A stretch of 64,000 bases of DNA from an uncultured Eubacteriales bacterium (GCA_902496015.1 CABUZJ010000004.1:4257-68256); one strand, 5' to 3'; numbered from the stretch's first letter, positions 495 through 18,983 are shown. Notes: generated by a model from the letters alone, not told the origin. Translations and numbers: made by a program.

Positions 495-682
495 TTACAT
501 AGTTTTAGACAGTTTTAAATCACTTGATTTTATTAAAAATATAGGCGTAGGTGTATGTAGGTGCACAAGTTTTAAAATTTTTTGTACCTATTATAAAAAA
601 TACTAGCATTTTTGCTAGTATTTATAAGAGTTTTATTAGCATAGAGCACAAGTTTTGGTAAAAATATTTTTAAGTTGGTAAG
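495..682 (+). repeat. Copy 1 of a ~188-bp direct repeat (R), ending in the core TTGGTAAG
   Basis: Aligns by eye with 17278-17465 with roughly ten mismatches. Contains hairpins AGGTGCA..TGyACCT and AATACTAGC..GCTAGTATT. The last 8 nt match the anticodon-loop segment of the neighbouring tRNA-Thr genes. Confidence 0.85.
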
Positions 683-743
683 ATAAAAAATGACAAATTT
701 TACCACTTAAAAAACAACAAAATTTAACTTAAAAACTGAATAT

Positions 744-783
744 GCTAATGTAGCACAGTCGGTAGTGCACCGCCTTGGTAAGA
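744..783 (+). pseudogene. tRNA-Thr 5' half (acceptor 5' strand, D arm, anticodon stem 5' strand and loop), truncated right after TTGGTAAG
   Basis: GCTAATG-TA-GCAC-AGTCGGTA-GTGC-A-CCGCC-TTGGTAA-G, after which tRNA-like sequence stops. Its acceptor strand pairs better with the orphan 3' half at 17458-17502 than the intact gene's 5' strand does. Confidence 0.7.
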
Positions 784-844
784 TTTGAAATGCCTAAAAT
801 TATCGACTTAAAAACTTAATAAATTAGCCTATTTTTATAGATAT

Positions 845-919
845 GCTACTGTGGCTCAGCGGTAGAGCACTGCCTTGGTAAGGCAGGGGTCACGGGTCCG
901 ATTCCCGTCAGTAGCTCCA
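845..919 (+). tRNA. tRNA-Thr (anticodon GGT), CCA encoded
   Basis: Hand-folded cloverleaf: acceptor GCTACTG/CAGTAGC, D stem GCTC/GAGC, anticodon stem CTGCC/GGCAG with loop TTGGTAA, T stem ACGGG/CCCGT. 75 nt. Confidence 0.9.
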
Positions 920-1013
920 CTCATTAAAAGTCGCTAAAACCCTTTATTTTCCTCAGGTTTTGGCGATTTTTTTATTCTCATTTTTAAACGAAGATTTTAA
1001 GTCTAAAAAACAT

Positions 1014-1147
1014 TTGCTGTCAATTTTTGGTGCAATTGCTGTCAATATTTGCTCCATAAAAAAGACCGATAGTCAAAAAATCAACTATCGGTCTAAATTG
1101 TTCTAATACTATATTAAACGGATATATTTGCTGTCAATTGCTGTCAA
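1014..1147 (+). repeat. Four direct copies of TTGCTGTCAA (1014, 1036, 1128, 1138)
   Basis: Read directly. The reverse-complement motif TTGACAGCAA / TTGACATCAA / TTGACAGTA recurs at 60938-60998. Confidence 0.8.
1057..1094 (-). terminator. Rho-independent terminator downstream of the 1134-1727 gene
   Basis: Stem AGACCGATAGT / ACTATCGGTCT followed by a T-run on the minus strand. Confidence 0.7.
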
Positions 1148-1727
1148 CTTTATTTGTTGTATTTTTTATTTCTTTTACTTCACTTCTAAAAGACTCCAAC
1201 TCCTGCAAATTACTATCTTTGATAATGCTTGCAGCAAATGGGTGTTTTTTAATAAAATTGATACTTCTGTTTATTTCTTTTAAAAAATTCTTAGTATCTT
1301 CATTTGATATTTCTCTTATTTTTGAATGTAAAATATTTTTTTGCTGTTCAATTTCTTTAATTCCTTTATTTATTCCAAAAGAAAATGACTGGTATGTCAC
1401 CATAAGTGTAAGCAATGAAAATAAGAATATTCCTAACAAATTCATAAAAGAAAAATCAACAAGATTAAAATTATATCTAATTGTTTCTCCGAGAAACAAA
1501 GAAACCATTAAGCTTATTAATGATTGCCAATATTGATTTTTAATCTTAATAGTAATTGCCGACATTAATTGAAATAAATATAGTTCTAAAATAAATGCAT
1601 TAGCCCAAGTATTTATATCCTTTATCCATGAAATATCAATCTCTAATTTTGAAAGGCCTGTTAATATAGCCCATACCAATGTTATTACCAAACTTGGCCA
1701 ATTTTTCTTTAAAAATAATTTAATCAT
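1134..1727 (-). CDS. Hypothetical integral membrane protein (about 4 TM plus a charged C-terminal tail)
   Basis: 197-aa ORF with hydrophobic segments and a terminator downstream. No recognisable domain. Confidence 0.6.
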   Translation of the reverse strand: MIKLFLKKNWPSLVITLVWAILTGLSKLEIDISWIKDINTWANAFILELYLFQLMSAITIKIKNQYWQSLISLMVSLFLGETIRYNFNLVDFSFMNLLGIFLFSLLTLMVTYQSFSFGINKGIKEIEQQKNILHSKIREISNEDTKNFLKEINRSINFIKKHPFAASIIKDSNLQELESFRSEVKEIKNTTNKVDSN

Positions 1728-1996
1728 ATAAACCTCTATCTCTATGGTATTATATCATACTATTATTTTAAATTCATCTACATCTCAAAATCTTTTTCTT
1801 TTCTCTTTTTCTTTCTTTCGAGTTCTTTAATCATTCTATCAATTTCTTCGTCAGTAAGTTCATCATCTTTTGGCTTTTCAATTTCAACTTCTTTCTCTTT
1901 TTGTTGTTCTTGAATTCTAGTGTTTAGTCGGTCAGTTGCTTCTCTTACATAATCACTATTAACAGAGTTATAAACTGTAATTGTAGTAAATACGAA

Positions 1997-3664
1997 CTAT
2001 AGGCGGTTAACTTTTTGTTTATTTCGTTTAAAATCTATACCATTTATATTGTCTATGAGTTTATAGTAAATATGAATTTTTCGAGGTTCTTTACTTCCTT
2101 TAATGAATTTATCTACTGTTATAAATTCTATTAGTTCTAATGCCATTTCTCGAGTTAAAACGGGTGTTTCTATATACTTTTTCACTCTTTGTATAAACTC
2201 ATCAACATTTTTCTTATTTTGTTCTATTTTCTCTATGCTTTTATTTATTTGTGCAATCTCTTTTTCTAAAATTTCCTTTTCTTTTTGATAATTGTTTAGT
2301 AGTGATATACAGATATCTTCTGAGATTTTATTTAAAACTTTATCTTCATAAGTTGATTGAATTAGTTTTTTAACATCATCAAGTCTTTTTACTTTATTTT
2401 GCAAATTTTTATTATCAATTGAAAACTTTTCTTTTTGCAAACTTTCTTGTCTTTGCAAAAATTCTTTTCTTGCTTTTTCTTCATTAAAGTTTATAAAGTT
2501 TGCCTTTGATTTTATATCTTGCAAAACAATATTTTCAATATCATCAATCTTTATCATGTGGCTTGTACATATTCTTGTACCAAAAACTTTAAACCCACCA
2601 CAATTATAATTTGCTTGTCGGTATATTCTAGGCCCATTTCTTGAATGTCTTGTATTATTCCAACCTATGTGCATTTTACTGCCACAATCTTCACAATACA
2701 TTAGTCCTGAAAGTGGATGTACAATATCATTTGATTGAACTTTTCCTTGACTTACAGACCTTTCAATCTCTTTTACCTTATCCCAAAGTTCTTGCGAAAT
2801 TATTGCTTCATGAGTATTGTAAATTATCACTTTTTCTTCATCTGGCCTTTTTATTTGCTTTCTATTTTTATAAGAAATATTTGTTGTTCGTAGTTGAACC
2901 AAATGCCCTAAGTATGTTGGATTGCGAAGTATTTGCTTTACAACATCACATGTCCAAAGATGATGACTAAATCTATATGCCATAACACCAAATTTTTGAG
3001 TCCTATAGTCTGATGGAATTGGTATATTCTCATCATTAAATTTTATTGCAATATGTTTTGGACTAATCCCACTTGCTCGCATCTCAAATATTCTTCTTAC
3101 ATTGCTTGCTGCAGGTTCATCTATTATTGGAAGTTTCTTTTCATCAGTTCCTTTTACATAACCATAAGGTGCATAGGTTGTTCTATATTTTCCAGCTTTT
3201 GCATTGGCTTCAATTACTGCTCGTATTTTTTTACTAGTATTAGCCGAATGCCATTCATTAAACACATTCATTATTGGCATCATATCCATACCTGTTGTAT
3301 TTTTTGCAGTATCAACATTATCATTTAAGGCAATAAATCTAATGTTATACATTGGAAAAATGTAATCTGTATATTGTCCAACTTGAATATAGTTTCTTCC
3401 AAACCTAGACAAATCTTTGCAAAGTATTGTGTTTATTTTTCCACACTTAGCATCCTCTAATAATCTTTGAACTCCCGGTCTATCAAATGTTGTTCCAGAA
3501 TATCCATCATCAACATATATTTCTATCAAATTCCAACCTTGCTCTAACACATATTTTTCAAGTATAAGTTTTTGATTTTCTATTGATAGAGACTCCCCAT
3601 TTCTTTCATCATCTCTTGATAATCTTGCATATATACCTACTTTAATTTCTTGTTTTGATTCCAT
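1997..3664 (-). CDS. Large serine recombinase (resolvase domain + recombinase domain + zinc ribbon + coiled coil)
   Basis: IKVGIYARLSRDDE catalytic-Ser motif and a C..C...C Zn-ribbon region (CEDCGSKM...NYNCGG). Start moved to MESKQ (ATG 3664) behind GGAGGA. Confidence 0.9.
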   Translation of the reverse strand: MESKQEIKVGIYARLSRDDERNGESLSIENQKLILEKYVLEQGWNLIEIYVDDGYSGTTFDRPGVQRLLEDAKCGKINTILCKDLSRFGRNYIQVGQYTDYIFPMYNIRFIALNDNVDTAKNTTGMDMMPIMNVFNEWHSANTSKKIRAVIEANAKAGKYRTTYAPYGYVKGTDEKKLPIIDEPAASNVRRIFEMRASGISPKHIAIKFNDENIPIPSDYRTQKFGVMAYRFSHHLWTCDVVKQILRNPTYLGHLVQLRTTNISYKNRKQIKRPDEEKVIIYNTHEAIISQELWDKVKEIERSVSQGKVQSNDIVHPLSGLMYCEDCGSKMHIGWNNTRHSRNGPRIYRQANYNCGGFKVFGTRICTSHMIKIDDIENIVLQDIKSKANFINFNEEKARKEFLQRQESLQKEKFSIDNKNLQNKVKRLDDVKKLIQSTYEDKVLNKISEDICISLLNNYQKEKEILEKEIAQINKSIEKIEQNKKNVDEFIQRVKKYIETPVLTREMALELIEFITVDKFIKGSKEPRKIHIYYKLIDNINGIDFKRNKQKVNRL

Positions 3665-3758
3665 TATTCCTCCTTTTAGAGAAACCAAAACACTGAAAGT
3701 AAATACATTTTTATTATAACATAAAAAATGCTAAACTGACAGTGTTTTTAGAAATCTC

Positions 3759-3935
3759 TTATAACATTTCCTGATATGCTTGCTTCTGGGCAAGATTAAT
3801 TATAATTTCATTTAAATTTTTACTTCCAACAAAGTGACTGATTACTATATATTTTTTATCTTTAATAACATATTCTTGTTTGCGTGTTGGAAAGTTTGAA
3901 AATTCTTGTTTTAAGTTTTGTAATTGTTTTTTCAT
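3759..3935 (-). CDS. Small TnpW-like transposon protein (58 aa)
   Basis: Own translation: MKKQLQNLKQEFSNFPTRKQEYVIKDKKYIVISHFVGSKNLNEIIINLAQKQAYQEML. GAGGG lies 6 nt upstream. It resembles small proteins next to Tn4451-type serine recombinases (from memory). Confidence 0.5.
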   Translation of the reverse strand: MKKQLQNLKQEFSNFPTRKQEYVIKDKKYIVISHFVGSKNLNEIIINLAQKQAYQEML

Positions 3936-3989
3936 TCATTACCCTCATCATAAAAAACTCCTTTCTATTAAATTTTGTCATAGTTCTTT

Positions 3990-4395
3990 TACGCATCGAG
4001 CGAAAGACTTTAGGCAATATATTAGGGAATCCCAAAAAGTATTACTCGCTAAACTTTTTGGGAAGCGGAAAAGCCAACAGTAAAATGAACAAATTTTATT
4101 TAAAAAATAAGATTTCAAATCCAAAGGTTGTGCTTTGACGAAGTGTTAGGTATCCTAACAGCTTTTAAAAAATGACGAGAAAACAAAAAATTGCTTGATT
4201 CTACAAAAGTCCTTTATTTTATGGATATTTGTAGTTATCAAAAGCAATTTGTTTCTCGCTTATCCTGTTTTCGCGTCAAAGCACTCACTTTTGCTCAAAA
4301 TTGCAAATAATATTTGCAATTTGTATCGCCTTTTCGTTCGGCTTTTCCTTTCCCCAAAAACTCTAGCAAGCAAGAGTTGTTCGGGGACCCCAATT
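3990..4395. other. ~400-nt imperfect palindrome (candidate oriT / single-strand origin / long hairpin RNA)
   Basis: Matching arm blocks: 4054-4075 CTTTTTGGGAAGCGGAAAAGCC vs 4340-4361 GGCTTTTCCTTTCCCCAAAAAC; 4130-4140 GTGCTTTGACG vs 4274-4284 CGTCAAAGCAC; 4177-4199 vs 4237-4257; centre CTACAAA..TTTGTAG. Inner hairpins at 4145-4159 and 4303-4317. Confidence 0.6.
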
Positions 4396-4403
4396 ATAGA
4401 TTT

Positions 4404-5601
4404 TTATATTTCAAAATCATTTTCATATTGTTCTATCAAATTTTGGTATCTCAATTCTTCTAACTTATTATAAAATTCTTGAAATGTCTTTATTATCTCA
4501 TAATTAACCTTTTGACTGATATATAAACACTCTTGAATTTCGTTAAACAATTTTTTCTTTTGCTTTATTTTTTGTGCTTTATATTTTGCATTTAGTTTTA
4601 ATCTTTCATCATCTTTTGCTTTTAAATTTTTCGATTGCTCAATAACAACATTTCCAATTCTTCGGTAAAAATCTTGCATATATTTTTTCTCAAAATTAAA
4701 AGGTTGTTTAACGCGATTTCGCTTGCAATATGCTTCAAACTTTTCATCTTTCTCTTTTGCTAAATTTATAAAATCTTCCTTTAAAGTTTTTGCTTGATAG
4801 TCTTTTGACAAAATGTAATTTGTAATACTATCAATCTTAGGTTTTAGTGATTTCATATTCTCACAGTCATAATATGTGTGTCCAGTTTTTGGAAATTCGT
4901 TTGCAAGAGATAAAAGTTTATTCTTTAAAATATACCCAACACTTGTCATTAAACCTTTTAATTTTGTCATTTTGTCTTTTTCTTGCAAGTATTTCTCTTG
5001 CCTTAAAGTCTATTGCAGAAAGCTCAATATTTGCTTTTAACTCATTGATTTTATTTAATGATAGCTTGCCATTAGAGTATTGCTTTCCTTTTTTATTTGG
5101 GCGTATTCTTTGTGGACTATTTTCAAAAAATGAAATGTGAATATGTCTGTTATCTGTATTCTCGTGAAGTCCTGCAAACCAAGTTATATTATCTGGTTTT
5201 AGTCCAGCATTTTTAAAAAATTTTGGCAACTCACTTTTTATTAAATTGTATGCTTGCTCATAACTATCACACCAAGCCTTACCAAACTTTTCTTCAAAAC
5301 TTATAACCATATCCCAAATAACTGATTTTGTTTTTCTTAAAGCCTGCCTTATCTCTTTTCTTTCATCACTTGTTAAAAGTCCATTTTTACCAAATACTCC
5401 AGCACTTTTATCTTTGTTGTTCATATATGAAAGATAGTCAAATTTTTTCATGTCATTTATTCCAGTCAAAATGTAATTCATATAATCTTTATTTGTGTTA
5501 GATGAATAAAATTGCCTTTTGTTTTTATATTCTTTACTCCCATCATGAGAGTTGTAATAATGCAAAAATATATTCACATTAGGAACAATTCTATCTGCCA
5601 T
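4404..5601 (-). pseudogene. MOB relaxase (MobL-like; HENTDNRHIHISF histidine motif) split into two overlapping ORFs by a frameshift
   Basis: ORFs 4918-5601 and 4404-4988 overlap by 71 nt. Frames can be joined near an A5 run (plus-strand T run ~4977-4981), giving ...AREILARK|DKMTKLKGL... Confidence 0.65.
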
Positions 5602-6031
5602 TTGTTTCCCTTATGCAATTAAGTTCTTCATCTAACAAATCAAATAGCCCTTCGTTTATATCATAATCACATTTTTTGTTACATTCTGAGTTGTAAACCA
5701 CATAGGCAACATAATTTAACATTTTCTTAATTAAAGCAATATCTATTTCATATTCGTTTTTGTTTTGTTTAATTTCGCATTTTGTGTTTTTAATTTCTTC
5801 ATTGATATAATATAAACTTTGTCTTATCTCATCTAGATTTGCTCTTTGGTCAACTTCATTATCTCCAAGTAATTTTTCAGCACCAGTAACAGTGCAATAA
5901 CGAATAAAGTCCGAAAGATTATCAAATCCCGATTTTGTTCTATTGTATGCTTTATCTAAAATATCTTTATCTTCTTGATTGTAAATTCGCAGTGTTAATT
6001 GTGATTTTAATGTTTGTTTTGTTTTTGGCAT
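5591..6031 (-). CDS. Ribbon-helix-helix mobilisation accessory protein (MobC-like)
   Basis: MPKTKQTLKSQLTLRIYNQEDKDILDK has an RHH-like N-terminus, lies directly upstream of the relaxase and overlaps it. Start set at ATG 6031 behind AAAGGAGAA. Confidence 0.55.
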   Translation of the reverse strand: MPKTKQTLKSQLTLRIYNQEDKDILDKAYNRTKSGFDNLSDFIRYCTVTGAEKLLGDNEVDQRANLDEIRQSLYYINEEIKNTKCEIKQNKNEYEIDIALIKKMLNYVAYVVYNSECNKKCDYDINEGLFDLLDEELNCIRETNGR

Positions 6032-6109
6032 TTTGTTTTCTCCTTTTGTTTTAGTTTTATAAAGGGGCAACAAAAAAAACTATCAAATTTTTAATAGTTC
6101 TTTTGCTTA

Positions 6110-6886
6110 TTATGAAATTTTATGTTTTGCTAATTCTTGAAGTATTTCATAAGTTGGAATATTCAAATATACTTTTTCTGTTTCATTAAACTTCCCACAT
6201 TGTTTTAGTTGTTTTAAAAAATCCCACACAGGTTTTGTCATCTTTTCTAATTTTTTTATTGTTGTAATAGAAATTTTTATTCCTTTCTTTTCTGCTATTT
6301 TCTTTATTTGAGTTACATTTTTCATTAAATCCATAACTTGTCCTAAATCAATTGAGATAAAATCTTTACTTGCCGATTTTATAACTTCTTCTATAACATC
6401 ATCTGCAAAATCTTTATAATGAGATTGATAAAAATTTGTATTGCTAAATTCAGGATCAAAAGAAAGCAAAATATGTAAATGTTTTAATGCTGTTGCTTTA
6501 AATTGACAAAAAGCACTAGTGCTCATTTTTAAGTAATCAGCAAGTTCTTTATTTTTATAGCCATATTTATAATAATCTTTTATAATCTTCGCTTGCTTAT
6601 CTTCGAGTTCGTCAACAACTCGCCAAATACATTTTGCAAATTCTTTTTTCTCTAAATTCTTTTCAATATAAGCATTCTCATCTGCAATTATTTCGTGATA
6701 TGTTAATGCTTCTTCACCATTATATTCTGTTTGCTCATCCAATGAAATTGCAATATATTGCCTATCTTTTTCTTGTTGACGTTTTAGTCTTTTATTGTCA
6801 CTACGCAAAAATAGAGCAACTTCATCGTTTACTTCCAAATCTATAAATTTATTGTGAATTCTATCGTAATATTTGATTGTTTCCAT
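6110..6886 (-). CDS. Sigma-70 region-4-like HTH regulator, of the type found in conjugative transposons
   Basis: KQAKIIKDYYKYGYKNKELADYLKMSTSAFCQFKATALKHL is a region-4-like HTH. Confidence 0.55.
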   Translation of the reverse strand: METIKYYDRIHNKFIDLEVNDEVALFLRSDNKRLKRQQEKDRQYIAISLDEQTEYNGEEALTYHEIIADENAYIEKNLEKKEFAKCIWRVVDELEDKQAKIIKDYYKYGYKNKELADYLKMSTSAFCQFKATALKHLHILLSFDPEFSNTNFYQSHYKDFADDVIEEVIKSASKDFISIDLGQVMDLMKNVTQIKKIAEKKGIKISITTIKKLEKMTKPVWDFLKQLKQCGKFNETEKVYLNIPTYEILQELAKHKIS

Positions 6887-7084
6887 TTTATCTTCCTTTA
6901 TTTAACTAGGTAGAACTTTGTTTTTTTGCAATCATCTCATTTACGAAAAAAGCCCAGTTTACCTATATGATACTTCTGGTCGGGTATCGATTTCGGTGCA
7001 CTAAGGCTCACTCAGAATTTATCTTTTGTTGGAACGATAAAGTTCGCTATGTAATGAAAATTAATACTCTTAACTTTCATTGCT

Positions 7085-7113
7085 ATTATAGAACAAATGT
7101 TTGGTAAATGCAA
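7085..7113 (-). promoter_or_regulatory. Sigma-70-type promoter TTGCAT-N17-TATAAT driving the 6886..4404 operon
   Basis: The reverse complement of 7108-7113 is TTGCAT and of 7085-7090 is TATAAT, with a 17-nt spacer. Confidence 0.6.
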
Positions 7114-7129
7114 GTAATATTTAATAACT

Positions 7130-8068: not shown

Positions 8069-8203
8069 CTTTGTTTACCTCCTAAAATATTTTAATTGAT
8101 TTTTGCCCCCTCACATATATAAGGACATTTAAAAATCAAAAATTTAGGCAGTAAATGAAATATTTTCAATTTTTCTAAAAAATTTTTTAATTTTCATACA
8201 AAA

Positions 8204-8238
8204 AGACCACCTAATCTTGCAATCGGTGGTCTCTTTTG
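8204..8238. terminator. GC-rich hairpin AGACCACC..GGTGGTCT with flanking A/T runs (left boundary of the MTase cassette)
   Basis: Read directly. Similar in sequence to the hairpin at 11192-11226. Confidence 0.6.
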
Positions 8239-8427
8239 CTTTTAATATAAAACAATTATAACATACTTTTTCTAAAAATGTATAAGTTTTTACCATTTTC
8301 CCCAAAATAGATGTATCAAAAGAATAATATTAGTAAAAGTTGAAGTCATTTATTGCAAGAATAGATGACTTTTATTTTTTTATAAAGATACATCTTTTTT
8401 ACTGTAATGCGTGGTCAAGGAGAGATT

Positions 8428-10522: not shown

Positions 10523-10533
10523 AAGGAACAAAA

Positions 10534-11187
10534 ATGAACGAAAAGAAAAAATTGTTAATGCATAGATTGATTTGGTTGAGTTTAACTATACTTATAATAT
10601 TGTTACCAATTATTATTAATGCTTTTCAACCAAAATTAGAATTGATAGATAGTGAATGTTATGTAGACTATTATGAATCAATAGATACAACCAGTTGTGA
10701 TATTACATTATATTTTAATCGAGAAGTTAATAGTGGATATGCTACAATTAATTTTTATGATTCTAATAACAATTTAATTGACAGCATAGAAGAATATTTT
10801 TTTAGTGATGGAAAGGAAGCTTCAAATTTATACACTTCTATTGATGGCAATGTTGATTCTTACGAAATAGTAGCATACGACTTTGAAACCTATAGTGGTA
10901 TATATGGAATATACGGATTACTTATAATAGCTATTCCTATGTTAATTTCTGCACTTTTACTTTCATATAAAGAATGTAATTACAATGGGAAAACAATATC
11001 TGTTTATGCAGGATTTTATCATCATACTCTAAGAGTTGATGGAGAATTATGTGATGAACATAACACTCTTATATCTTTTACTTCAATAAAATTAAGTACA
11101 ACTGATAAAGATAATAGCAAAATTGAAGCTAATATTAGTTTAACCAATCGAATTGCTATCAAAGTTAACGATAAATTATGTAAATAA
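10534..11187 (+). CDS. Hypothetical two-TM membrane protein, third gene of the MTase/DUF262-HNH cassette
   Basis: Hydrophobic helices at ~aa 12-30 and ~117-135, an 11-nt gap after the HNH gene, AAAGGAA RBS, and a terminator immediately downstream. Confidence 0.6.
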   Translation: MNEKKKLLMHRLIWLSLTILIILLPIIINAFQPKLELIDSECYVDYYESIDTTSCDITLYFNREVNSGYATINFYDSNNNLIDSIEEYFFSDGKEASNLYTSIDGNVDSYEIVAYDFETYSGIYGIYGLLIIAIPMLISALLLSYKECNYNGKTISVYAGFYHHTLRVDGELCDEHNTLISFTSIKLSTTDKDNSKIEANISLTNRIAIKVNDKLCK

Positions 11188-11191
11188 AAAA

Positions 11192-11226
11192 AGACCATCT
11201 AATTTTATAATAGATGGTCTTTTTTC
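11192..11226 (+). terminator. Rho-independent terminator AGACCATCTA..TAGATGGTCT + T5
   Basis: Read directly. Confidence 0.8.
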
Positions 11227-11412
11227 TTCCCTTTTTAGTCTTTTTTATTAAATTTTAATGCCAAAACTATTTTAGTTTAGCCTTTATAATTATATTGATT
11301 GATAGTTTTAAATAGTATTTTTATAACCCTTTGCCACTTAATATAAAAATAGAAGTTAGTTATAATAAGTGGAAATACCATCTATTTTATTCCCTTTGTA
11401 TAGGGGAGTAAA

Positions 11413-11865
11413 ATGAACATATACAGAAATAAAATTGTTGCGTTTGCCGGTCATAGATATGAATGGCAATCAATAGGGATAGAAGAAAAACTTTTGCGAG
11501 TGTTAGAAGATTTAATCAATAAAGGTTATACAATATTTTATGACGGCAATTATGGTGCTTTTGACAATAAGTGCAGAAATGCAGTTTTGAAACTTAAAAA
11601 TAAATATCCACATATAAAACTTGTTTTAATTTTAACATATTATCATCACAACAAAGAAAAATATCCAATACCATCATATTACGATGAAACCATTTTACCA
11701 GAACTAGAAAATTTGCACTATAAACAAAAAATTACAAAACGAAACGAATGGATAATCGACAACTGTAACTTACTTGTCTGTCACGTCCAAGAAATTTACA
11801 AAAGTGGTGCTTATAACACTTTTAAATACGCCCAAAAGCAAAACAAACCAATTATTTATATTTAA
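11413..11865 (+). CDS. SLOG-superfamily protein (DUF1273 / YpsA-like)
   Basis: KIVAFAGHRYE...FYDGNYGAFD...KLVLILTYYHH...KRNEWIIDNCNLLVCHV...SGAYNTFKYAQKQNKPIIYI follows the DUF1273 layout. Confidence 0.7.
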   Translation: MNIYRNKIVAFAGHRYEWQSIGIEEKLLRVLEDLINKGYTIFYDGNYGAFDNKCRNAVLKLKNKYPHIKLVLILTYYHHNKEKYPIPSYYDETILPELENLHYKQKITKRNEWIIDNCNLLVCHVQEIYKSGAYNTFKYAQKQNKPIIYI

Positions 11866-11885
11866 TAAAAAATAAAGACCAGTTA

Positions 11886-13553
11886 TTAGTCTTCTTTTAT
11901 AGATTGATCTAGTCTCTTATATAAATGAGATAATAAACTTAATAAATCAAGGCAATCTTTTTCAGTAAACAATCCTGATTCTTTTAAATCAACATGTTCT
12001 TCGTGACTAATAATATTCCTTCCACCTTGGACAATACCTCTTGAAAGTGCTAATTGCCCCTCTTCAATATTGTTTAGTGTTGTTTCTGAGAAAGGTTGCC
12101 CATTAGGCCTTAGCTTAAAATTTGCTGTAGTTTTTAAAGGTTTATTATCTTTGCCAAACGATTTAGACATAATATCTAAATCTTCTGTTGCTGAAACTCC
12201 TGACTTTGCTTGTACTGCATTTTTATATCTTTTTAATGCTTCTTGAAATGCTGAGTAAAAATCTTTTTGTTGATAATGAATCTTTGAAGCATCTTGAACT
12301 TGATTATGTAATAATCTATAGTGGAAATAAGTATATGGTGGTATTAAGTCATAAACTTGATGTACGACAATTGAAAAATCTTCATCATCAATTTCTGGTT
12401 TTTCTGATATTTTGCTTATAATACTAGATAATCTAGGGCGAATATCATCGGGTACTGTAGCATACCATTTAGAAATATTTATCCCTGTTTTTTCAGTATT
12501 TGATTTTTCTTTTGCTTCTTTACGTTTTGCACTCCAATCACGGACTAAAAATCTAATCATCTTTTGCAAAAATTCTTGTAATTCTTGAGCTTCTGGCATA
12601 TCCCAGCTTAAAGATTGTCTATCCGTTGAAATTAAATCCTTATCAAATTCATCAAGATAATCAGCATCAATCCATCCAGTTAAATAAGAAAAGGTGTGCC
12701 CTGCCTCAGAAACACCAAAGAAACTAGGGACATTTGCTAATCGGCCATTTACATAAAGGGTAACACCTCTTAAGTCAGGCTTTATAGGCTTTTTAGATGA
12801 AATAATTTTTCCCTTTAATGTGTTTTTAAAAGAATATTCACATTCAATTGTTTCACATAAATCTACAACACTCCATTCAAACTCCTTATCAATACTTTCG
12901 TACTTTAATTCTCTTGTAAGTTCCAAAACCTCATCATCGTTTCTACTCATTACAACTTTGAATGTTTCATCAAAACAATTAAAAAGTTTTGATAACGATA
13001 TTGCTGTTGATGTTAAATCAAATTCACTAACCCTTGATAAGTGTGTTAGTTCAATTGTTGTTCCTTTCAGAGATAAATCTTCCTTACTAAGAATAGTACA
13101 TATTGGAAAATATTTGCCAGAAGTTTCTTGCAAAATACAATCCCAATCTAAAGAAAACTTTGTAAATGTGTCTTCATTTTCTTTAGTGGTTGTTATGGTT
13201 ATTGTTTTTCCAATTCCAAACAACGCTAATTTCCCAATACCTTTCTTACCTGTTATTTTTCGTCCCTTGGAATTATTTCTACTTTCATCTTCATCCCTAC
13301 GTCGTCTACCTATAACCAAAAAGTTATCTCTTACTTCCTCAAAAGACATCCCACATCCATTATCTGAAACAATTATTTTTTTATTATTTATATCTTTATC
13401 ATAAAGTTTTATTTCAACATGTTCTGCACCTGCATCATAGGCATTTGCGACTAATTCAGCTAATGCATATGGCAACTGAGAATACATTTTAATACCTAAA
13501 TGTTCAATTGTATGAGGATCAAATTTTAATTCAAGTTTATCATTAGTATCCAT
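11886..13553 (-). CDS. GHKL (HATPase_c_3 / paraMORC-like) ATPase with a C-terminal TIGR02391 (Abi_C-like) domain
   Basis: ELVANAYDAGA (N box), SDNGCGMS (G1), GKKGIGKLALFG (G2). C-terminal ...FQEALKRYKNAV...LSRGIVQGGRNIISHEEH...LLSLLSHLYKRLD. Confidence 0.75.
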   Translation of the reverse strand: MDTNDKLELKFDPHTIEHLGIKMYSQLPYALAELVANAYDAGAEHVEIKLYDKDINNKKIIVSDNGCGMSFEEVRDNFLVIGRRRRDEDESRNNSKGRKITGKKGIGKLALFGIGKTITITTTKENEDTFTKFSLDWDCILQETSGKYFPICTILSKEDLSLKGTTIELTHLSRVSEFDLTSTAISLSKLFNCFDETFKVVMSRNDDEVLELTRELKYESIDKEFEWSVVDLCETIECEYSFKNTLKGKIISSKKPIKPDLRGVTLYVNGRLANVPSFFGVSEAGHTFSYLTGWIDADYLDEFDKDLISTDRQSLSWDMPEAQELQEFLQKMIRFLVRDWSAKRKEAKEKSNTEKTGINISKWYATVPDDIRPRLSSIISKISEKPEIDDEDFSIVVHQVYDLIPPYTYFHYRLLHNQVQDASKIHYQQKDFYSAFQEALKRYKNAVQAKSGVSATEDLDIMSKSFGKDNKPLKTTANFKLRPNGQPFSETTLNNIEEGQLALSRGIVQGGRNIISHEEHVDLKESGLFTEKDCLDLLSLLSHLYKRLDQSIKED

Positions 13554-13563
13554 GTTATACTCC

Positions 13564-14613
13564 TTAGATTTTATAATATTTTAAAATACTTCTTCCTATT
13601 ATTTCTCCCAATTTAACCGGAACTGCATTGCCAATTTCTCTTGCTACATCTTTTAATGAAAAGTCTTTACCTGGCTCTGTAAACTGATAATTTTGTGGAA
13701 AAGTTTGTATTAATGCTCCTTCTCGAAGAGTTAGTGCTCTATTTTGTTCGGGATGTCCATATCTGCCTGTACCATAACAATAAAATTGTGTCGTCATTGT
13801 TGGAGATATTTTATCCCATTCCATTCTTCCATACACAGAAGTATAAGTTTGACCGCTATCTTTTTGATGACATTTACATCTTAATTCTTTAGGCCAATCT
13901 TTCCAAGTCCCACCGGGTTTTGATAATTTTATTCTTTCTAAATTAATATCTGATAACTTTGCTGTTTGGTGAAGAATGTCTGTTGGACAAATTTCCCCAC
14001 TTTCAACAGCTGGTAAGTGACCAATTGTTTGTCTTACAGTAACGTAACTATCTTTTGAATGAGTTTTATCCAATAATTTAATCTCACCTTTTTTAGAAGC
14101 TAATAGTAAAAATCGTCTTCTATTTTGTGGTATTCCATAATCTGGGCAATAAACAACTTTGTAATCTACATTATATCCAGATTCTTCAAGAATTGCTAAA
14201 AATTCTTTGAATACATATGTATCACGAATTTTAGGTACATTCTCCATAGAAACTATGTCAGGTTTTACACTTTTAACCAAACGGCCAAATTCTAACAGCA
14301 AATCATATCTTTTATCATTTTCTCGTTTTTTATTTTCATCACTTTGATATTTAAAACTCATTTGCGAAAATGGTTGACAAGGTGCACATCCTGCCAAAAC
14401 CTTTATTGCATTGGGGGAGTAACATTTATTTATATCTTCAGCTGAAACATTTCTAATGTCTTTTTCAATAAATTTTGCGTTGTTATTAAATTCATAAGGA
14501 TATTTACAAGTTTTATCTATATCAAAACCAGCTTTTACTTTAAGCCCACTTTGTATTAATCCGCAGGTTAACCCTCCGACCCCACAGAACAAATCTACTA
14601 CTTCTATTTTCAT
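13564..14613 (-). CDS. dcm: DNA (cytosine-5) methyltransferase
   Basis: DLFCGVGG (I), APCQPFS (IV), ENVP (VI), QNRRR (VIII), GNAVP (X). Confidence 0.9.
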   Translation of the reverse strand: MKIEVVDLFCGVGGLTCGLIQSGLKVKAGFDIDKTCKYPYEFNNNAKFIEKDIRNVSAEDINKCYSPNAIKVLAGCAPCQPFSQMSFKYQSDENKKRENDKRYDLLLEFGRLVKSVKPDIVSMENVPKIRDTYVFKEFLAILEESGYNVDYKVVYCPDYGIPQNRRRFLLLASKKGEIKLLDKTHSKDSYVTVRQTIGHLPAVESGEICPTDILHQTAKLSDINLERIKLSKPGGTWKDWPKELRCKCHQKDSGQTYTSVYGRMEWDKISPTMTTQFYCYGTGRYGHPEQNRALTLREGALIQTFPQNYQFTEPGKDFSLKDVAREIGNAVPVKLGEIIGRSILKYYKI

Positions 14614-14717
14614 AAATTTTCTCCATTTTCATTATAACATATTTTATGTATTATTTTTATTTTTTTAATAATTTTATTAAATTTTTAATAATTTTAATCC
14701 TGATTAATAAACATTTA

Positions 14718-15818
14718 CTAACTTATTACCTGTAATATTTTATTAATTATTGAATTGCAAAGGGTAATTGATAGTTTTAATTGTTTTCCGATGTTTAGCA
14801 AGTCTTCTTTTGTTGGGTTGGCATTTCCGTTGACGGTCATTTCGTGTTCTAACTTGCTTGGTGTTTTTGTTAAGTCGTATGCTGGGGACAAAACATAGCC
14901 TTTTTTATCTTCATCATATAAGAAAGAAAAGTTCTTGCCGTGATCGTCTTTGTTGCCATACAAAACATTAAAACACATTCTTTTATACGCCTCTATAATA
15001 TCGTTTTTATCTACACAAATATTTTGTATTACTTGAAACAAGTGCATATAATCTAAATTTGGTATTCTATGGGTTGTTTCAAGTAGAGATGATAAAGATA
15101 TCATATGAACTCGTTTGCCGTCCTTTCTATCAAATCTTTTAGCTCCAAAATAACCTGAACATATTTTAGATTTAAACAACTTAAATTCATTAACATTTAT
15201 ACCACATTCTTCTGCTAGTGTATTTGCTTTGTATTCTTGTTCTCCAATATTTTTAGGGTCAATAATGCAAGGGAATTTAACAATCCAATAGTCTTTATCT
15301 ATCTTTATATGTGCTTTTGGTCTAGCACCACCAGAACTTCCACCAAGGTTGTAGATTTTATCTAAATCAATATCTATAATTTCATCTTCTAGTACCTGTT
15401 GTGCTTCTTTTGCGATTTCATCTAAATCAAATTCTATTTCACTTTCTTCTTGTGTCTGGCAAGGTTCATATGAAAGTCCACCAAGACCATTTCCACTAAC
15501 AAGGGTTAGTTTTGTAAGTGGAGATATTTTATTAGGATTTATTCCTTTTTTAGATAACATTCTATTTAATAATAGTTCACCCCAACCATCTGGCAAACTA
15601 TCTTGAAAAACACCATACAATCCATTAAAAGTTAGTTTTTCATTTATATATACTTTATTTGAAAGTGGCAAAGAAAATGGAGAAATGGAAAATCCTGTTT
15701 TAATCCATTCCTCGTCATACTGAAAACCTATTTTATTATCTTCAAGTTCTGCTAAATAACCAACGATTGTGCTATTATATTTTACTACTAGTTTCTTAAC
15801 ATTTTGAATTTTCATCAT
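14718..15818 (-). CDS. hipA: HipA-family serine/threonine kinase toxin
   Basis: GGSSGGARPKA and DDHGKNFSF catalytic motifs. ATGA overlap with the upstream HTH gene. Confidence 0.85.
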   Translation of the reverse strand: MMKIQNVKKLVVKYNSTIVGYLAELEDNKIGFQYDEEWIKTGFSISPFSLPLSNKVYINEKLTFNGLYGVFQDSLPDGWGELLLNRMLSKKGINPNKISPLTKLTLVSGNGLGGLSYEPCQTQEESEIEFDLDEIAKEAQQVLEDEIIDIDLDKIYNLGGSSGGARPKAHIKIDKDYWIVKFPCIIDPKNIGEQEYKANTLAEECGINVNEFKLFKSKICSGYFGAKRFDRKDGKRVHMISLSSLLETTHRIPNLDYMHLFQVIQNICVDKNDIIEAYKRMCFNVLYGNKDDHGKNFSFLYDEDKKGYVLSPAYDLTKTPSKLEHEMTVNGNANPTKEDLLNIGKQLKLSITLCNSIINKILQVIS

Positions 15819-16108
15819 AGCTCCTTCAAGGATGAAATTTTAGCATTCTTAAACAAAGCGTCAAAATCATTTAAACAATCAATGGCATTTGCTAGTTTAA
15901 TTAAAGAAGTTAAAGATATTTCACCATTACTTTCAAATCTTCTAATGCTTGCATAAGAAACACCAGACTTAACTGATAAGTCCTTTTGGGAAAGTTTTAA
16001 TTCTTTTCTTCTCTTTTTAAATCTTTCAACTAAATCATTTGTCGTTTTACTTTCTGTTGGAACAGAAACAAAATCATTAATATCATACATCTCTTTCATA
16101 ATGCTCAT
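15815..16108 (-). CDS. hipB: Xre-family HTH antitoxin (HipB-like)
   Basis: RRKELKLSQKDLSVKSGVSYASIRRFESNGEISL is an HTH_3 pattern, translationally coupled to hipA. Confidence 0.8.
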   Translation of the reverse strand: MSIMKEMYDINDFVSVPTESKTTNDLVERFKKRRKELKLSQKDLSVKSGVSYASIRRFESNGEISLTSLIKLANAIDCLNDFDALFKNAKISSLKEL

Positions 16109-16183
16109 ATTTTAGCAATTTTAAACTCATTTGTCAACCAATTGCTCAAATATTATTAATTTTATATTGTTTATAATAATCAA

Positions 16184-16213
16184 ATAAAAAAGACAGGATT
16201 TTAATTCCTGTCT
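16184..16213 (-). terminator. Terminator AGACAGGA..TCCTGTCT + T-run after the 16233-17039 gene
   Basis: Read directly. Confidence 0.65.
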
Positions 16214-16232
16214 CAATTCTTATAGACTATAT

Positions 16233-17039
16233 TTAAATATGATATCCCATAGATCCCAAGTTAAATAGCACAAAATATAATATAGCAGTCGGTAAATCTA
16301 CATTCTCTTTTCCCATAATCAAAGATACTAAACGTTCTTTTGATTTACTTAATTTAAACTCAACCTTTGGATTGCTTAATTTTTCTTTTCCCCTATATGG
16401 ATCATCATGCCCCCAAATTGATAATGCAATCTCTCCCCAACCAGTTTCTATAATTCTTAAGCAATTTTTTTGAGTAATGCATGACAATATTGCTTTCTCA
16501 GGAGTAAGATTTTTCTCTTTCATAACTTTCATTATCATATCTTGCGAGTTATCATCGTTTGTAAAATCAATAACTATTTTAGGTGAAATAACTCTTTTAT
16601 TGCTATTTCCTTCATTTAAAAATACTCTTTTAAATATTTCTAATTTTTCTTCATCATTAAAATCTCTAAGATTTTCTTCTTCGTATGATTTCCAATCTGT
16701 AACAATCATACTTTCAACCATGTTTGTAAAAAAGCCCTGTTCTTCTTGATATTTTTCTCTATTGGTAAGTAACAATTTACCAATTTCTAAAGCGGGTTCA
16801 CTCGCTTTAATTAAATCTGTCCATTTGTTAAACCCAGAAAGTTTAGCAATAATATGTTGAGCTTTCATTAAACCAAATTCCATATCATCTGTAATATGAA
16901 AATTAGACAAGATATCAAAAATGTCATTAAAAAAACGTGGTTTATAATCATAATACCCCTCGTCTTCATTAAAATATCTTGTTTTATAATCGTCAAACAA
17001 CTTTTTAGCTTGTTGTTTAAAAAAATTTATATTTGCCAT
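16233..17039 (-). CDS. Hypothetical 268-aa cytoplasmic protein (own transcription unit, last cargo gene of the island)
   Basis: Long ORF with a terminator. No domain recognised. The N-terminal FFKQQAKKLFDDYK...GLMKAQHIIAKLSGFNKWTDL motif recurs in many uncharacterised proteins (from memory). Confidence 0.55.
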   Translation of the reverse strand: MANINFFKQQAKKLFDDYKTRYFNEDEGYYDYKPRFFNDIFDILSNFHITDDMEFGLMKAQHIIAKLSGFNKWTDLIKASEPALEIGKLLLTNREKYQEEQGFFTNMVESMIVTDWKSYEEENLRDFNDEEKLEIFKRVFLNEGNSNKRVISPKIVIDFTNDDNSQDMIMKVMKEKNLTPEKAILSCITQKNCLRIIETGWGEIALSIWGHDDPYRGKEKLSNPKVEFKLSKSKERLVSLIMGKENVDLPTAILYFVLFNLGSMGYHI

Positions 17040-17277
17040 ATAATATACTCCTTAATTTTTAATTTAATTTATTGTCTATTATTTGTGCGTCCGTAAACTT
17101 TTTAGACAATAAATCTTAAAAATAAAGAATGTATTATCTATACATTGGCTGGACATTATCCTTTCCACGGACGGGTAGGCTTGCCAATAAGCACATTAAT
17201 ATAATAACTAATTGTAGTTAAAAAGTCAATAATTTTACTAACATCACTTGAATCAGATTAGAAAGTAAGTTCCTAAC

Positions 17278-17465
17278 TTACATAGTTTTAGGCAGTTTTA
17301 AATCACTTGATTTTATTAAAAATATAGTCGTAGGTGTATGTAGGTGCACAAGTTTTAAAAATTTTTGCACCTATTACAAAAAATACTAGCGTTTTTGCTA
17401 GTATTTATAAGGGGTTTATTAGCATAGAGCACAAGTTTTGATAAAAATATTTTTAAATTGGTAAG
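17278..17465 (+). repeat. Copy 2 of the ~188-bp repeat R, ending in TTGGTAAG
   Basis: See 495-682. Confidence 0.85.
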
Positions 17466-17502
17466 GTGTAGGTCGCAAATACGATTCCCGCTATCAGCTC
17501 CA
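17458..17502 (+). pseudogene. Orphan, decayed tRNA-Thr 3' half (anticodon loop to CCA)
   Basis: TTGGTAA-GGTGT-AGGTC-GCAAA-TACGATT-CCCGC-TATCAGC-T-CCA. The T-stem 5' strand is GCAAA where GCGGG would be needed, so it no longer folds. Confidence 0.7.
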
Positions 17503-18972: not shown

Positions 18973-18983
18973 ATTATCTCCTT

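Follow-up and report, generated by a model that had tools for sequence, protein, structure and literature searches.

Positions 783-17465 of the window, the 64,000-nucleotide stretch of DNA that was analyzed, probably represent a degenerate integrative mobilizable element (IME), E_c, which belongs to a family from uncultured low-GC gut Clostridia. The tRNA of E_c is the only tRNA-Thr(GGT) in the window. In its relatives, the target tRNA is split repeatedly, leaving stacked dead 5' halves. Judged by its sequence, the recombinase of the island is a lambda-like tyrosine integrase, and the adjoining large serine recombinase is an intruder. E_c is now defective, as its integrase is cut to 69 codons by the serine-recombinase segment and its relaxase is frameshifted. 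The features of E_c and of the neighboring islands are as follows.

1-464, minus strand: right-hand cargo end of an upstream island, E_a, comprising the promoter region and 5' end of an AAA_21 ATPase gene that starts near 290.
465-674, plus strand: R1, P arm of an attP-type site, with a hairpin (598-623) and, at 547-565, the direct repeats GTAGGTGTA / GTAGGTGCA.
675-682, plus strand: core copy 1 (TTGGTAAG), linking R1 to S_b in an attP-type junction also present in L033.
683-743, plus strand: spacer S_b, a leader travelling with the tRNA_b allele.
744-782, plus strand: orphan 5' half of tRNA-Thr(GGT) allele b (T5_b), ending in core copy 2 (775-782).
783-844, plus strand: spacer S_c, with which E_c begins on the left and which separates the crossover from E_c's own tRNA.
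845-919, plus strand: intact replacement tRNA-Thr(GGT), allele c (ARAGORN, Rfam), with core copy 3 at 875-882 and T-loop TCCGATT.
920-1147, plus strand: P' arm with a terminator at about 931-975, TTGCTGTCAA at 1014, 1036, 1128, and 1138, and a hairpin at 1063-1094.
1134-1727, minus strand: 197-aa membrane/coiled-coil protein, cargo adjoining the attachment site.
1781-1987, minus strand: 3' remnant of the tyrosine integrase gene, last 69 codons.
1988-4400, minus strand: intruding segment with a large serine recombinase gene (1997-3688), replacing the 5' part of the integrase gene and the xis-like gene.
4404-4988 and 4918-5601, minus strand: MobL relaxase, split into two ORFs; island backbone (4404-6886).
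5591-6073, minus strand: 160-aa gene, island backbone.
6110-6886, minus strand: HTH/sigma-70-r4-like regulator, island backbone.
7130-17039: cargo (Pfam).
17275-17457, plus strand: R2, P arm at the right end of E_c.
17458-17465, plus strand: core copy 4 (TTGGTAAG), attR-type junction.
17466-17502, plus strand: T3_x, a decayed tRNA-Thr(GGT) 3' half, orphaned and no partner of 744-782.
17503-17745, plus strand: decayed P' arm of an older island, E_x, with terminator, two degenerate repeat pairs, and a hairpin at about 17654-17685.
17752-23752, minus strand: remains of E_x, with a DUF4417 protein, a split ABC-F gene, and a GNAT/ASCH protein.
23835-23942, plus strand: R3, a truncated third P arm copy, 78% identical to 465-572 and fused to a polysaccharide gene cluster.

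An earlier note on this DNA had described a 5' half, an intact tRNA-Thr(GGT), and R2 fused to a decayed 3' half. All three are present, at most one base away from where it placed them. ARAGORN makes a single call on these pieces, the gene at 845-919, which scores 68.7 bits with the Rfam tRNA model (gathering score 29) and has 7/7 acceptor-stem and 5/5 anticodon-stem pairs; neither program calls a tRNA at 744-782 or 17466-17502. Allele c occurs with identical sequence in L014, L015, and L021-24. The orphan 5' half is 100% identical to the 5' half of live allele b in L005, L031/32, L034, and L037. The displaced 3' fragment lies at the far end of E_c as R2-TTGGTAAG-3' half (17458-17502), and an R-core-3' half junction is also found in L016/17 and L013. 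It is identical to live alleles at just 24-29 of 38 positions. Its reported better fit to the orphan 5' half than to the intact gene exists numerically (6 versus 5 acceptor pairs) but is meaningless, because it forms 6/7 acceptor pairs with T5_b and 7/7 with alleles GCTGATG and GCTGGTG. The two halves are thus not the remains of one gene, as had been supposed: the 5' half is pristine, whereas the 3' half is decayed and better matches other alleles.

The core TTGGTAAG is found at 675-682, 775-782, 875-882, and 17458-17465. The whole window contains eight copies, compared to 2.3 expected, a number reached by 0/100 shuffles. The sequence common to the junctions is TTGGTAA, extended by a G in some, and all junctions in the window and its relatives lie in the anticodon loop of tRNA-Thr(GGT). 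The homology proposed earlier for the R-core-spacer segments is clear for R1 (492-682) and R2 (17275-17465), which are 94% identical over 191 nt (11/191 differences); S_b and S_c are only weakly alike, yet both fit the family consensus RAYAAAAA..GCA...TTT.ACCAC. R1 is also about 91% identical to the R of L033 and 75% to that of L016. R3, an extra copy absent from the earlier account, is probably the right end of E_x. As for the homology claimed between the flanks downstream of the intact gene and of the 3' half, 17503-17745 can be aligned colinearly with the P' arm behind the intact gene and with those of L016 and L005, each having a terminator and then a hairpin between two repeat pairs, and the R-core-T3-terminator stretch is 74% identical to L016 over 298 nt. 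The P' arm is conserved between tRNA and integrase gene in all relatives, and the R arms have paired repeats akin to those of the P' arm. Three observations count against the main reading: TTGCTGTCAA can also be read on the opposite strand as a -35 box (TTGACA), the repeat motif of R2 (GTAGGTGTA) differs from that of the E_c P' arm (TTGCTGTCAA), and the attP core has AT-rich flanks that do not resemble the anticodon stem, which is rich in GC.

About 16 distinct related loci, all from metagenome assemblies like the window itself, share the order orphan 5' half, TTGGTAA, spacer, intact tRNA-Thr(GGT), terminator, TTGCTGTCAA repeats, and tyrosine integrase gene; their taxonomic labels are Christensenella, Clostridia, and Candidatus Caccovivens. 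These loci support the earlier claims that an integrating element sharing just the anticodon loop (TTGGTAA, in some with G) splits a resident tRNA-Thr(GGT) and brings a complete replacement about 61 nt past the crossover. The spare tRNA is present in the window and in all relatives, behind a spacer of 60-64 nt, or of 153 nt in one lineage (L043-46). The catalog of 16 loci comprises 22 orphan 5' halves and 15 intact genes, with starts about 100 nt apart and up to three stacked halves per locus. The splitting mode is supported by three alleles that are seen in both the before and the after state. An intact copy of allele GCTTATGTGGCG occurs in L012 and a split one in L034. Allele GCTGGTG is whole in L018/19 but split in L021-23, L025, L027, and L036, and allele b, whole in L005, L031, L034, and L037, is found split in the window, L033, L036, and L013. 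On the other side, neither a circular form nor an excision product nor a naive empty site was found.

One spacer-tRNA unit can stand behind differing orphan halves. S_c with tRNA_c follows three of them, in the window, in L014 (S_c about 93% identical, same tRNA), and in L021 (a variant). S_b precedes intact tRNA_b in L005, L031/32, L034, and L037 and the orphan T5_b in L033 and L036. At one chromosomal site, flanked by CrtO (82% identical, L023 versus L025), the same orphan 5' half is followed by different sets of spacer, tRNA, P' arm, and integrase gene. Contexts become homologous precisely at the orphan half's 5' end or at the core. The upstream DNA of L021, L022, and L023 is unrelated, and L025 and L027 differ upstream of the orphan 5' half but share 99.95% identity from there on, over spacer, tRNA, and integrase gene. 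All spacers carry a conserved 5' motif, which indicates that they belong to the element and not to the hosts. Although the seven live alleles differ from one another in many places, each keeps full pairing in the acceptor (7/7) and anticodon (5/5) stems, indicating that the two tRNA halves travel together. Of 11 pairs of units whose spacers are 90% identical or more, 7 have identical right-hand tRNAs and 4 identical left-hand halves, which is a weak statistic.

From these data, the attP of the family would consist of the P arm R with its direct-repeat pair, a TTTTTAAR flank, the core TTGGTAA, a RAYAAAAA flank, and spacer S, followed by a complete tRNA-Thr(GGT), a terminator, and a hairpin flanked by TTGCTGTCAA repeats. 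In sequence, the 7-nt core is the same as the tRNA-Thr(GGT) anticodon loop, and the junction sequences suggest that strand exchange at this position splits the resident gene. Its 5' half remains upstream fused to S, its 3' half lies beyond R at the far end, and neither junction rebuilds a tRNA. The element's own tRNA, behind the leader of the resident gene, would then take over its function. Each later invasion strikes the newest tRNA, so that dead 5' halves accumulate with a period of about 100 nt. Integration is putatively catalyzed by the tyrosine-family integrase, which in relatives is full-length (453-465 aa, Phage_integrase and SAM-like domains) and adjoins the same tRNA and P' arm. It also adjoins a xis-like gene and a MobL relaxase gene, which points to an IME. 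In L018, L025, and L031 the backbone order is the same: 153 aa, MobL (399-405 aa), 87/88 aa, and integrase. The 87/88-aa protein has a weak, sub-threshold match to HTH_17/AlpA. Judged by gene content, the relatives are thus putative IMEs, with an integration/excision module and a relaxase but no conjugative pore, and the backbone in the window has the same genes with the integrase truncated and MobL split.

A competing, though unlikely, explanation is a classical tRNA-targeting island that carries only a 3' half, with an attP of the order R, core, 3' half, terminator, and arm sites. Crossover at 875-882 would then rebuild the tRNA from a host 5' and an island 3' half, and the units of 5' half and spacer would be resident sequences of other origin. 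Exactly this layout (R-TTGGTAAG-3' half-terminator-TTGCTGTCAA repeats-int) is present in L016/L017, and a paralogous remnant elsewhere in the window, described below, likewise keeps a tRNA 3' half. In addition, L021-L024, which have an identical integrase, share a 100% identical block only from the tRNA on, with the preceding 100 nt (orphan half and spacer) being 92-97% identical, and L033 has a chimeric tRNA with mismatched stems, which fits crossing-over within the loop of a tRNA gene carried by an element. The family therefore also shows crossovers in the tRNA of the element itself, either by the classical mode or by homologous recombination. However, such a crossover cannot make a junction of 5' half, core, and spacer, of which at least one is found in each of the approximately 16 occupied sites; what follows the host 5' half is a spacer, and no target tRNA is regenerated from host 5' and island 3' parts. 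Furthermore, the near-identical block of L025 and L027 takes in the spacer, the spacers are all homologous although their host contexts are unrelated, a P arm runs straight into a spacer at the R1-core-S_b junction of the window and L033, and halves are never mixed in live alleles except in L033. Most likely, the classical mode coexists with the splitting mode as a second one, with excision at the element's own tRNA loop, and does not replace it; for the last event in the window, the two modes cannot be told apart.

It is highly improbable that no mobile element was involved and that the 5' halves are local tandem duplications, caused by slippage on the 8-nt repeat, or an assembly artefact. 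The regular period of 100 nt, the exact 8-nt repeat at each boundary, and the sole use of metagenome assemblies would agree with this, but successive units differ strongly, in tRNA alleles with compensatory stem changes and in spacer type, so that they are not copies of one another, and they always accompany the same integrase family. The junctions are reproduced in independent assemblies and samples, and the 11/191 differences between R1 and R2 are too many for a collapse at k = 119-141. The artefact that the earlier note had raised as a possibility is also contradicted by a 107.8-kb ENA contig, which matches the window at 100% identity, and by separate Logan contigs (L002, L004), in which both junctions are found.

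Least credible of all is insertion of the 16.7-kb segment by the large serine recombinase (1997-3688) with crossover at the short sequence TTGGTAAG. No other large recombinase near the left end is intact, and serine integrase attP and attB sites are typically little alike outside a short core, but the serine recombinase gene is absent from all related loci with the same junction architecture, which all have the tyrosine integrase or a remnant, and an identical protein is not recorded anywhere else. Homology to relatives breaks exactly at 1987/1988 inside the tyrosine integrase frame, 10 nt from the stop codon of the serine recombinase, indicating that the latter inserted into, or replaced, the original integration module.

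Under the preferred explanation of a tRNA-splitting IME, the gene split by E_c is not a bare chromosomal copy, as first proposed, because an R-core-spacer junction of the attP type already lies on its left. The R-core-S_b-5' half junction recurs in another sample (L033), and the split tRNA accordingly belonged to an earlier sibling island. The contrast between the pristine 5' half and the decayed 3' half, which fits other alleles, requires a later deletion or R-R recombination. The history of the window may thus have begun with a sibling island (S_b and tRNA_b) in tandem behind E_a, whose right end would be R1. E_c (S_c and tRNA_c) would have struck this sibling, the rest of which may later have been deleted by R-R recombination, which would have brought R2 up against E_x (17466 to about 23942), whose 3' half and P' arm now follow it. 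Finally, E_c would have lost its integrase and xis-like genes to the serine-recombinase segment and, with a frameshifted relaxase gene, become a fixed fossil.

The integrase remnant is identical at the amino acid level (100%, tblastn) to the C-terminus of the L005 integrase up to the break at 1987/1988, and L015 encodes a full-length homolog of 455 aa. Homology to relatives ends at 1987 and returns in MobL, so the left boundary of the intruding segment is sharp and the right one, near 4400, is set solely by the returning homology; no att repeats bounding 1988-4400 were identified. Its recombinase contains the Pfam domains Resolvase, Recombinase, Zn_ribbon_recom, and DUF4368. The 197-aa protein has no Pfam match, and copies with 92-97% identity adjoin tRNA-Thr in L005-L015. 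The cargo encodes a second, short tyrosine recombinase (7130-8068), an EcoRI-type methylase, a GmrSD/HNH nuclease, a HATPase/Ymh protein, a Dcm methylase, HipBA, and function-unassigned proteins. In E_a, a consensus promoter lies on the minus strand at 342-314, and the parent contig leftward of the window (L003) carries AAA_21 and RloB genes and a type I restriction-modification system. Within E_x, 22627-22766 matches the region upstream of the integrase remnant in L013. A paralogous island remnant at 59-61.4 kb retains the 3' half of a tRNA-Ile gene, beginning in the anticodon stem.

E_c and its relatives resemble the IMEs of Firmicutes in being small islands with an integrase, an excisionase-like gene, a single relaxase, and no conjugation pore genes, and in their cargo of restriction-modification, toxin-antitoxin, and other defense genes. 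To our knowledge, known IMEs that target tRNA genes restore these genes, and no report of an IME with a spare cognate tRNA was found in the literature searched. An anticodon-loop sublocation class of tRNA-targeting islands was reportedly described by Williams in 2002. As in classical tRNA/tmRNA-targeting islands (Islander, PMC4383910), the tyrosine integrase gene adjoins the tRNA end, the crossover lies in the 7-nt anticodon loop with a displaced tRNA fragment at the far end, and islands form tandem arrays at one tRNA gene. Classical islands, however, carry the 3' part of the gene, regenerate the target at the junction, and accumulate only 3' fragments, whereas in the E_c family the junction yields no tRNA, the element supplies an entire gene, and it is 5' fragments that build up on the upstream side.

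The earlier note fairly called the arrangement unusual, but it is not unprecedented. In the tRNA-dependent lysogeny of actinobacteriophages such as Fionnbharth, LeBron, Gaia, and others, first described for mycobacterial phages (Guerrero-Bustamante & Hatfull, mBio 2024, PMC10865867), the principle of a short core, no rebuilt tRNA, and a spare cognate tRNA has been published, the essentiality of the spare tRNA has been demonstrated experimentally, and an arm-binding domain of the integrases has been described; the same paper also points to the Lactobacillus johnsonii prophage Lj965. The E_c family likewise has an attB overlapping a tRNA gene with no functional tRNA rebuilt at either junction, paired candidate arm sites, and a tyrosine integrase with an N-terminal extension of about 77 residues before the SAM-like and catalytic domains. 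It is a new variant of this principle with a non-phage element and serial stacking. Unlike the phages, it is a MobL-bearing defense-cargo island of Clostridia, and no phage structural or lysis genes are present in 920-17277 or in the relatives. Its spare tRNA lies inside the P' arm, usually just about 61 nt from the crossover, and its invasions overwrite one another, leaving stacks of at most three orphan 5' halves. In a further difference from the phages, the family seems able to use its own tRNA loop as a second core in the classical mode.

Within the window, ARAGORN calls a single tRNA-Thr(GGT), located at 845-919, which reaches 68.7 bits with the Rfam tRNA model. The octamer TTGGTAAG occurs at 675, 775, 875, and 17458, and the window contains 8 copies in total compared to 2.3 expected. 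The copies at these four positions are embedded in an array of P-arm repeats (R1 and R2), spacers, and tRNA pieces.

Features of the tRNA-Thr(GGT) locus (window positions)
465/492-674: R1
675-682: core copy after R1
683-743: spacer S_b
744-782: orphan tRNA 5' half of 39 nt with the core at its end
783-844: spacer S_c
845-919: intact tRNA-Thr(GGT), with the core as anticodon loop plus G39, followed by a terminator and then 16.3 kb of genes
17275-17457: R2, 94% identical to R1
17458-17465: core copy after R2
17466-17502: decayed tRNA 3' half
23835-23942: R3, a truncated third R copy

A 107.8-kb ENA metagenome contig is 100% identical to the window, and both junctions are also contained in separate Logan contigs. 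The split tRNA-Thr pieces and repeats described in the earlier note are therefore no accident of assembly, and the observation is borne out by the ARAGORN and Rfam results, the octamer copies, the R1/R2 pair, and these independent contigs. An Rfam search with the R arms and spacers matched no known RNA family.

Related loci were gathered by look-ups with a 197-aa protein of the island and with a full-length integrase. The first of these queries, run against metagenomes, returned one short locus only, L015, which is the source of the full-length integrase (455 aa; 693 homologs at E <= 1e-30), and the genome scan returned three loci. In total, about 45 loci were retrieved from many human-gut metagenomes and three MAGs; the MAGs are labeled as uncultured Christensenella or Clostridia, and one homolog is named Candidatus Caccovivens. 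The order HTH regulator, 153-aa gene, MobL (399-405 aa), 87/88-aa protein, integrase, optional cargo, and tRNA-Thr(GGT) is conserved, with the tRNA on the strand opposite to the integrase gene block. The 87/88-aa protein is a candidate excisionase with a weak, sub-threshold match to HTH_17/AlpA. The optional cargo consists of the 197-aa protein, a reverse transcriptase, or a SMEK/radical-SAM set, and no phage genes were found in the approximately 45 loci. Judged by its gene content, the family is predicted to be an integrative mobilizable element with defense cargo. Many of the loci L025-L038 (e.g., L026 11664-12915) encode a 70/82-aa ORF and a 322-aa reverse transcriptase (RVT_1) between integrase and tRNA; this pair is probably a retron- or DRT-like defense cargo at a privileged position beside the attachment site.

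Close relatives of the integrase are absent from annotated phage and plasmid collections, in which identity is at most 36%: the best phage match is MT839135 (36% identical, without a tRNA), and plasmid matches are at most 30% identical. A viral-contig scan yielded only 51%-identical integrases, none with a tRNA nearby. Among the recovered loci no complete relative with both ends is present, and the R arm of L025-28 starts just at the 10-kb flank limit.

In tRNA orientation, every occupied site consists of upstream DNA, one to three units of 5' half-TTGGTAA-spacer (up to four spacer units in L036) with a period of about 100 nt, an intact tRNA, a terminator, two TTGCTGTCAA repeats, a hairpin, two further TTGCTGTCAA repeats, optional cargo, and the integrase gene. 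One lineage has a 153-nt spacer. L021, L022, and L023 share the same integrase; relatedness starts only with the first base of the orphan 5' half, and the DNA in front of it is unrelated among the three. L025 and L027 show 99.95% identity over the stretch that runs from the orphan 5' half to the integrase, spacer and tRNA included, but are unrelated upstream of it. L023 and L025 have the same orphan 5' half and a chromosomal flank (82% identical) in common but differ in their sets of spacer, tRNA, P' arm (the tRNA-to-integrase side), and integrase. Spacer S_c together with its tRNA allele (tRNA_c) is found in the window, L014, and L021, each time behind another 5' half. These junctions, and the allele and spacer comparisons given next, match the prediction that spacer and whole tRNA would form the left end of a mobile element, with a crossover that takes place where the resident gene has its 7-nt anticodon loop.

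Three alleles have been found both intact and split: GCTTATGTGGCG (intact in L012, split in L034), GCTGGTG (intact in L018/19, split in L021-23, L025, L027, and L036), and allele b (intact in L005, L031, L034, and L037, split in the window, L033, L036, and L013). Despite differences at many positions in the stems, pairing is complete in all seven live alleles (acceptor 7/7, anticodon stem 5/5); thus, both tRNA halves are inherited together and not assembled at each integration. All spacers begin with a common 5' consensus, RAYAAAAA..GCA...TTT.ACCAC, and the P arms end in TTTTTAAR, which places the core within an imperfect AT-rich inverted repeat. In the orthologous loci L005 and L012 (89% identical over 2.2 kb), the tRNA-Thr genes, which occupy the same position, are only about 84% identical by hand count and less conserved than their flanks, with compensatory changes; this suggests that the allele was replaced or that the tRNA evolves unusually fast here. 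At position 55, U is nearly universal in tRNAs. Three live tRNA-Thr(GGT) alleles (window 845-919, L018, and L035) have the T-loop TCCGATT with C at this position; they fold and score like normal tRNAs.

The right-end junction R-TTGGTAAG-3' half is present in the window, L016/17, and L013. In L016/17, an R copy with 75% identity is followed by a well-preserved 3' half; the P' arm behind it is complete and the integrase live. In L013, the 3' half of allele b is joined to a different arm. The R arms contain paired direct repeats at a fixed position, namely GTAGGTGTA / GTAGGTGCA in R1 and R2, AGGTGTCAA twice in L016, and TTGCTGTCAA / CTGCTGTAAA in L025, which resemble the TTGCTGTCAA repeats of the P' arm. 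Together, the R and P' repeats are candidate arm-type sites in the layout expected for a lambda-like integrase. On the opposite strand, the TTGCTGTCAA repeats can also be read as -35 boxes (TTGACA); at window positions 1014-1147 they give 11/12 promoter-like matches (minus strand 1137-1108 and 1023-994), antisense toward the tRNA.

The genes between tRNA and R2 show what has become of the island at 783-17465 (E_c).

Genes of the island
1781-1987 (-): last 69 residues of a tyrosine integrase
1997-3688: large serine recombinase
7130-8068: short tyrosine recombinase
between tRNA and R2: 197-aa membrane protein
between tRNA and R2: MobL relaxase, split over two ORFs
between tRNA and R2: 160-aa gene
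between tRNA and R2: HTH/sigma-70-r4-like regulator
between tRNA and R2: restriction-modification, GmrSD/HNH, HATPase/Ymh, Dcm, and HipBA genes

The 69-residue remnant belongs to a tyrosine integrase other than the short recombinase at 7130-8068 and is 100% identical to the integrase of a related contig. Its reading frame is interrupted at 1987/1988; the serine recombinase gene has its stop codon ten bases away. Because homology with all relatives ends at 1987 and returns in MobL, the serine-recombinase segment (1988-4400) has replaced about 382 integrase codons, i.e., most of the gene, and the xis-like gene. The serine recombinase, which carries a DUF4368 tail and had no match in an exact-protein look-up, thus appears as an intruder and not as the maker of the tRNA junctions. 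The island in the window is a decayed and probably immobile fossil. The 197-aa protein was considered as a recombination factor and dropped, as it is a membrane/coiled-coil cargo protein missing from many relatives.

R1-core-S_b is a P arm fused to a spacer, an attP-type junction that recurs in L033; such junctions arise in tandem arrays. The DNA left of R1 carries island-like cargo (AAA_21 and RloB, and a type I R-M system). Accordingly, E_c split the tRNA of an earlier sibling island rather than a bare gene of the chromosome. The orphan 5' half (744-782) is pristine. The 3' half at 17466-17502 agrees with any live allele at no more than 24-29 of 38 positions; its acceptor strand forms all seven pairs with GCTGATG or GCTGGTG and six of seven with the orphan 5' half. 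The two halves do not stem from one gene. Downstream of the 3' half follow a colinear, decayed P' arm, a DUF4417 gene, a split ABC-F gene, a GNAT gene, and the truncated R3, which together look like an older island (E_x). The ABC-F type ATPase gene (19424-21069) is split into ORFs of 127 and 420 aa, which fits decay of this remnant. A deletion or recombination between R copies would have taken out the rest of the sibling island, resulting in the present order. The core of the earlier interpretation, an element carrying spacer and tRNA that crosses over in the anticodon loop, is retained. Three details are revised: the split gene belonged to a sibling island, the two orphan halves are not partners, and the acting recombinase would be the tyrosine integrase left as a remnant at 1781-1987.

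A classical mechanism, in which the element carries a 3' half and rebuilds the tRNA, cannot replace the spare-tRNA model on its own since it is unable to create 5' half-core-spacer junctions. Crossovers do also occur in the loop of the tRNA that the element itself carries, as three loci or groups of loci indicate. In L021-L024, identity is 100% over tRNA and integrase gene, beginning at the tRNA start, and the preceding 100 nt are only 92-97% identical. The tRNA-Thr that ARAGORN calls on the minus strand of L033 (about 5453-5528) combines the 5' half of one allele with the 3' half of allele b and has 5/7 acceptor and 4/5 anticodon-stem pairs; this chimera is a footprint of a crossover inside an element-borne tRNA. 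L016 has the order R-core-3' half-P'. Such crossovers could reflect the classical mode or homologous recombination, and the classical mode probably coexists with the spare-tRNA mode. An integrated element would then have a choice of two left cores. If it used the outer core for excision, the circle would carry spacer and tRNA; with the inner core, a classical circle with the 3' half only would form, leaving a scar of 5' half and spacer. Among unit pairs with spacers at least 90% identical, the right-hand tRNA is identical in 7/11 and the left-hand half in 4/11, a weak association statistic. Since most spacer pairs are unrelated, a Mantel-type rank correlation between spacers and tRNA halves, right-hand or left-hand, did not reach significance, and the argument therefore relies on the specific site comparisons.

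According to the Islander description, integration usually splits the target, island sequence restores it, and the displaced fragment marks the island end (PMC4383910). An exception to target restoration, tRNA-dependent lysogeny, was described in 2024: a tyrosine integrase acts on attP and attB sites whose common sequence is limited to a core of 8-17 bp within a tRNA gene, the tRNA is not restored, and survival of the lysogen requires the phage-encoded cognate tRNA (PMC10865867). Its authors expected it beyond actinobacteriophages and cited prophage Lj965 (PMC10865867). The tRNA-Thr island family agrees with this system in every feature that can be compared at sequence level. In contrast, the family is no phage, the spare tRNA is located within the P' arm adjoining the crossover, and the element is serially overwritten with stacked 5' halves, for which no report was found in the literature searched.

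Tentatively, and with considerable doubt about the scheme as a whole, the spare tRNA can be regarded as the currency of inter-island competition, with lock-in, allele selection, and a two-core mode switch. An incoming island would kill the tRNA of the resident island and thereby make itself indispensable (tRNA lock-in or addiction); tRNA, P' arm, and integrase stumps persist after island decay, which lock-in would explain. The unusually fast compensatory diversification of tRNA-Thr(GGT) (seven alleles and the C55 T-loop variant) would reflect selection to escape either further targeting or tRNA-directed defenses, and the left end with one core before the spacer and one in its own tRNA would permit switching between the spare-tRNA and the classical 3'-half mode. 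The idea of tRNA lock-in, which the stacks raise, is testable.

The tRNA-Thr(GGT) gene of this lineage has been overwritten repeatedly by mobile elements, and the stacked dead 5' halves preserve the order in which invaders arrived at one site, rare material for studying island competition and turnover. The family extends tRNA-dependent integration, so far shown only in phages of Actinobacteria, to relaxase-bearing defense islands of uncultured human-gut Clostridia. Tools that map islands solely by regenerated tRNAs and 3' fragments would set the borders of islands like these in the wrong place. The 7-nt core with a portable tRNA could serve integration vectors where target disruption would otherwise be lethal.

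A sister-island remnant lies at 58850-61400 of the window, with an integrase pseudogene at 59046-59572 (+) sharing 48% amino acid identity with the tRNA-Thr family integrase, a TTGCTGTCAA motif at 60938, and a 12-nt 3'-end repeat at 61247-61236. Its tRNA-Ile(GAT) 3' half (about 61388-61338, minus strand) starts inside the anticodon stem, i.e., in the classical 3'-half-carrying layout, and no intact tRNA-Ile is found near this remnant. Furthermore, a 58-nt repeat consisting of a tRNA-Ser(GCT) 3' end and terminator occurs at 46190-46247 and 55033-55090 (88% identical), recurring 570 nt downstream of tRNA-Ser(TGA); this pair may mark another island at 46.2-55.0 kb.
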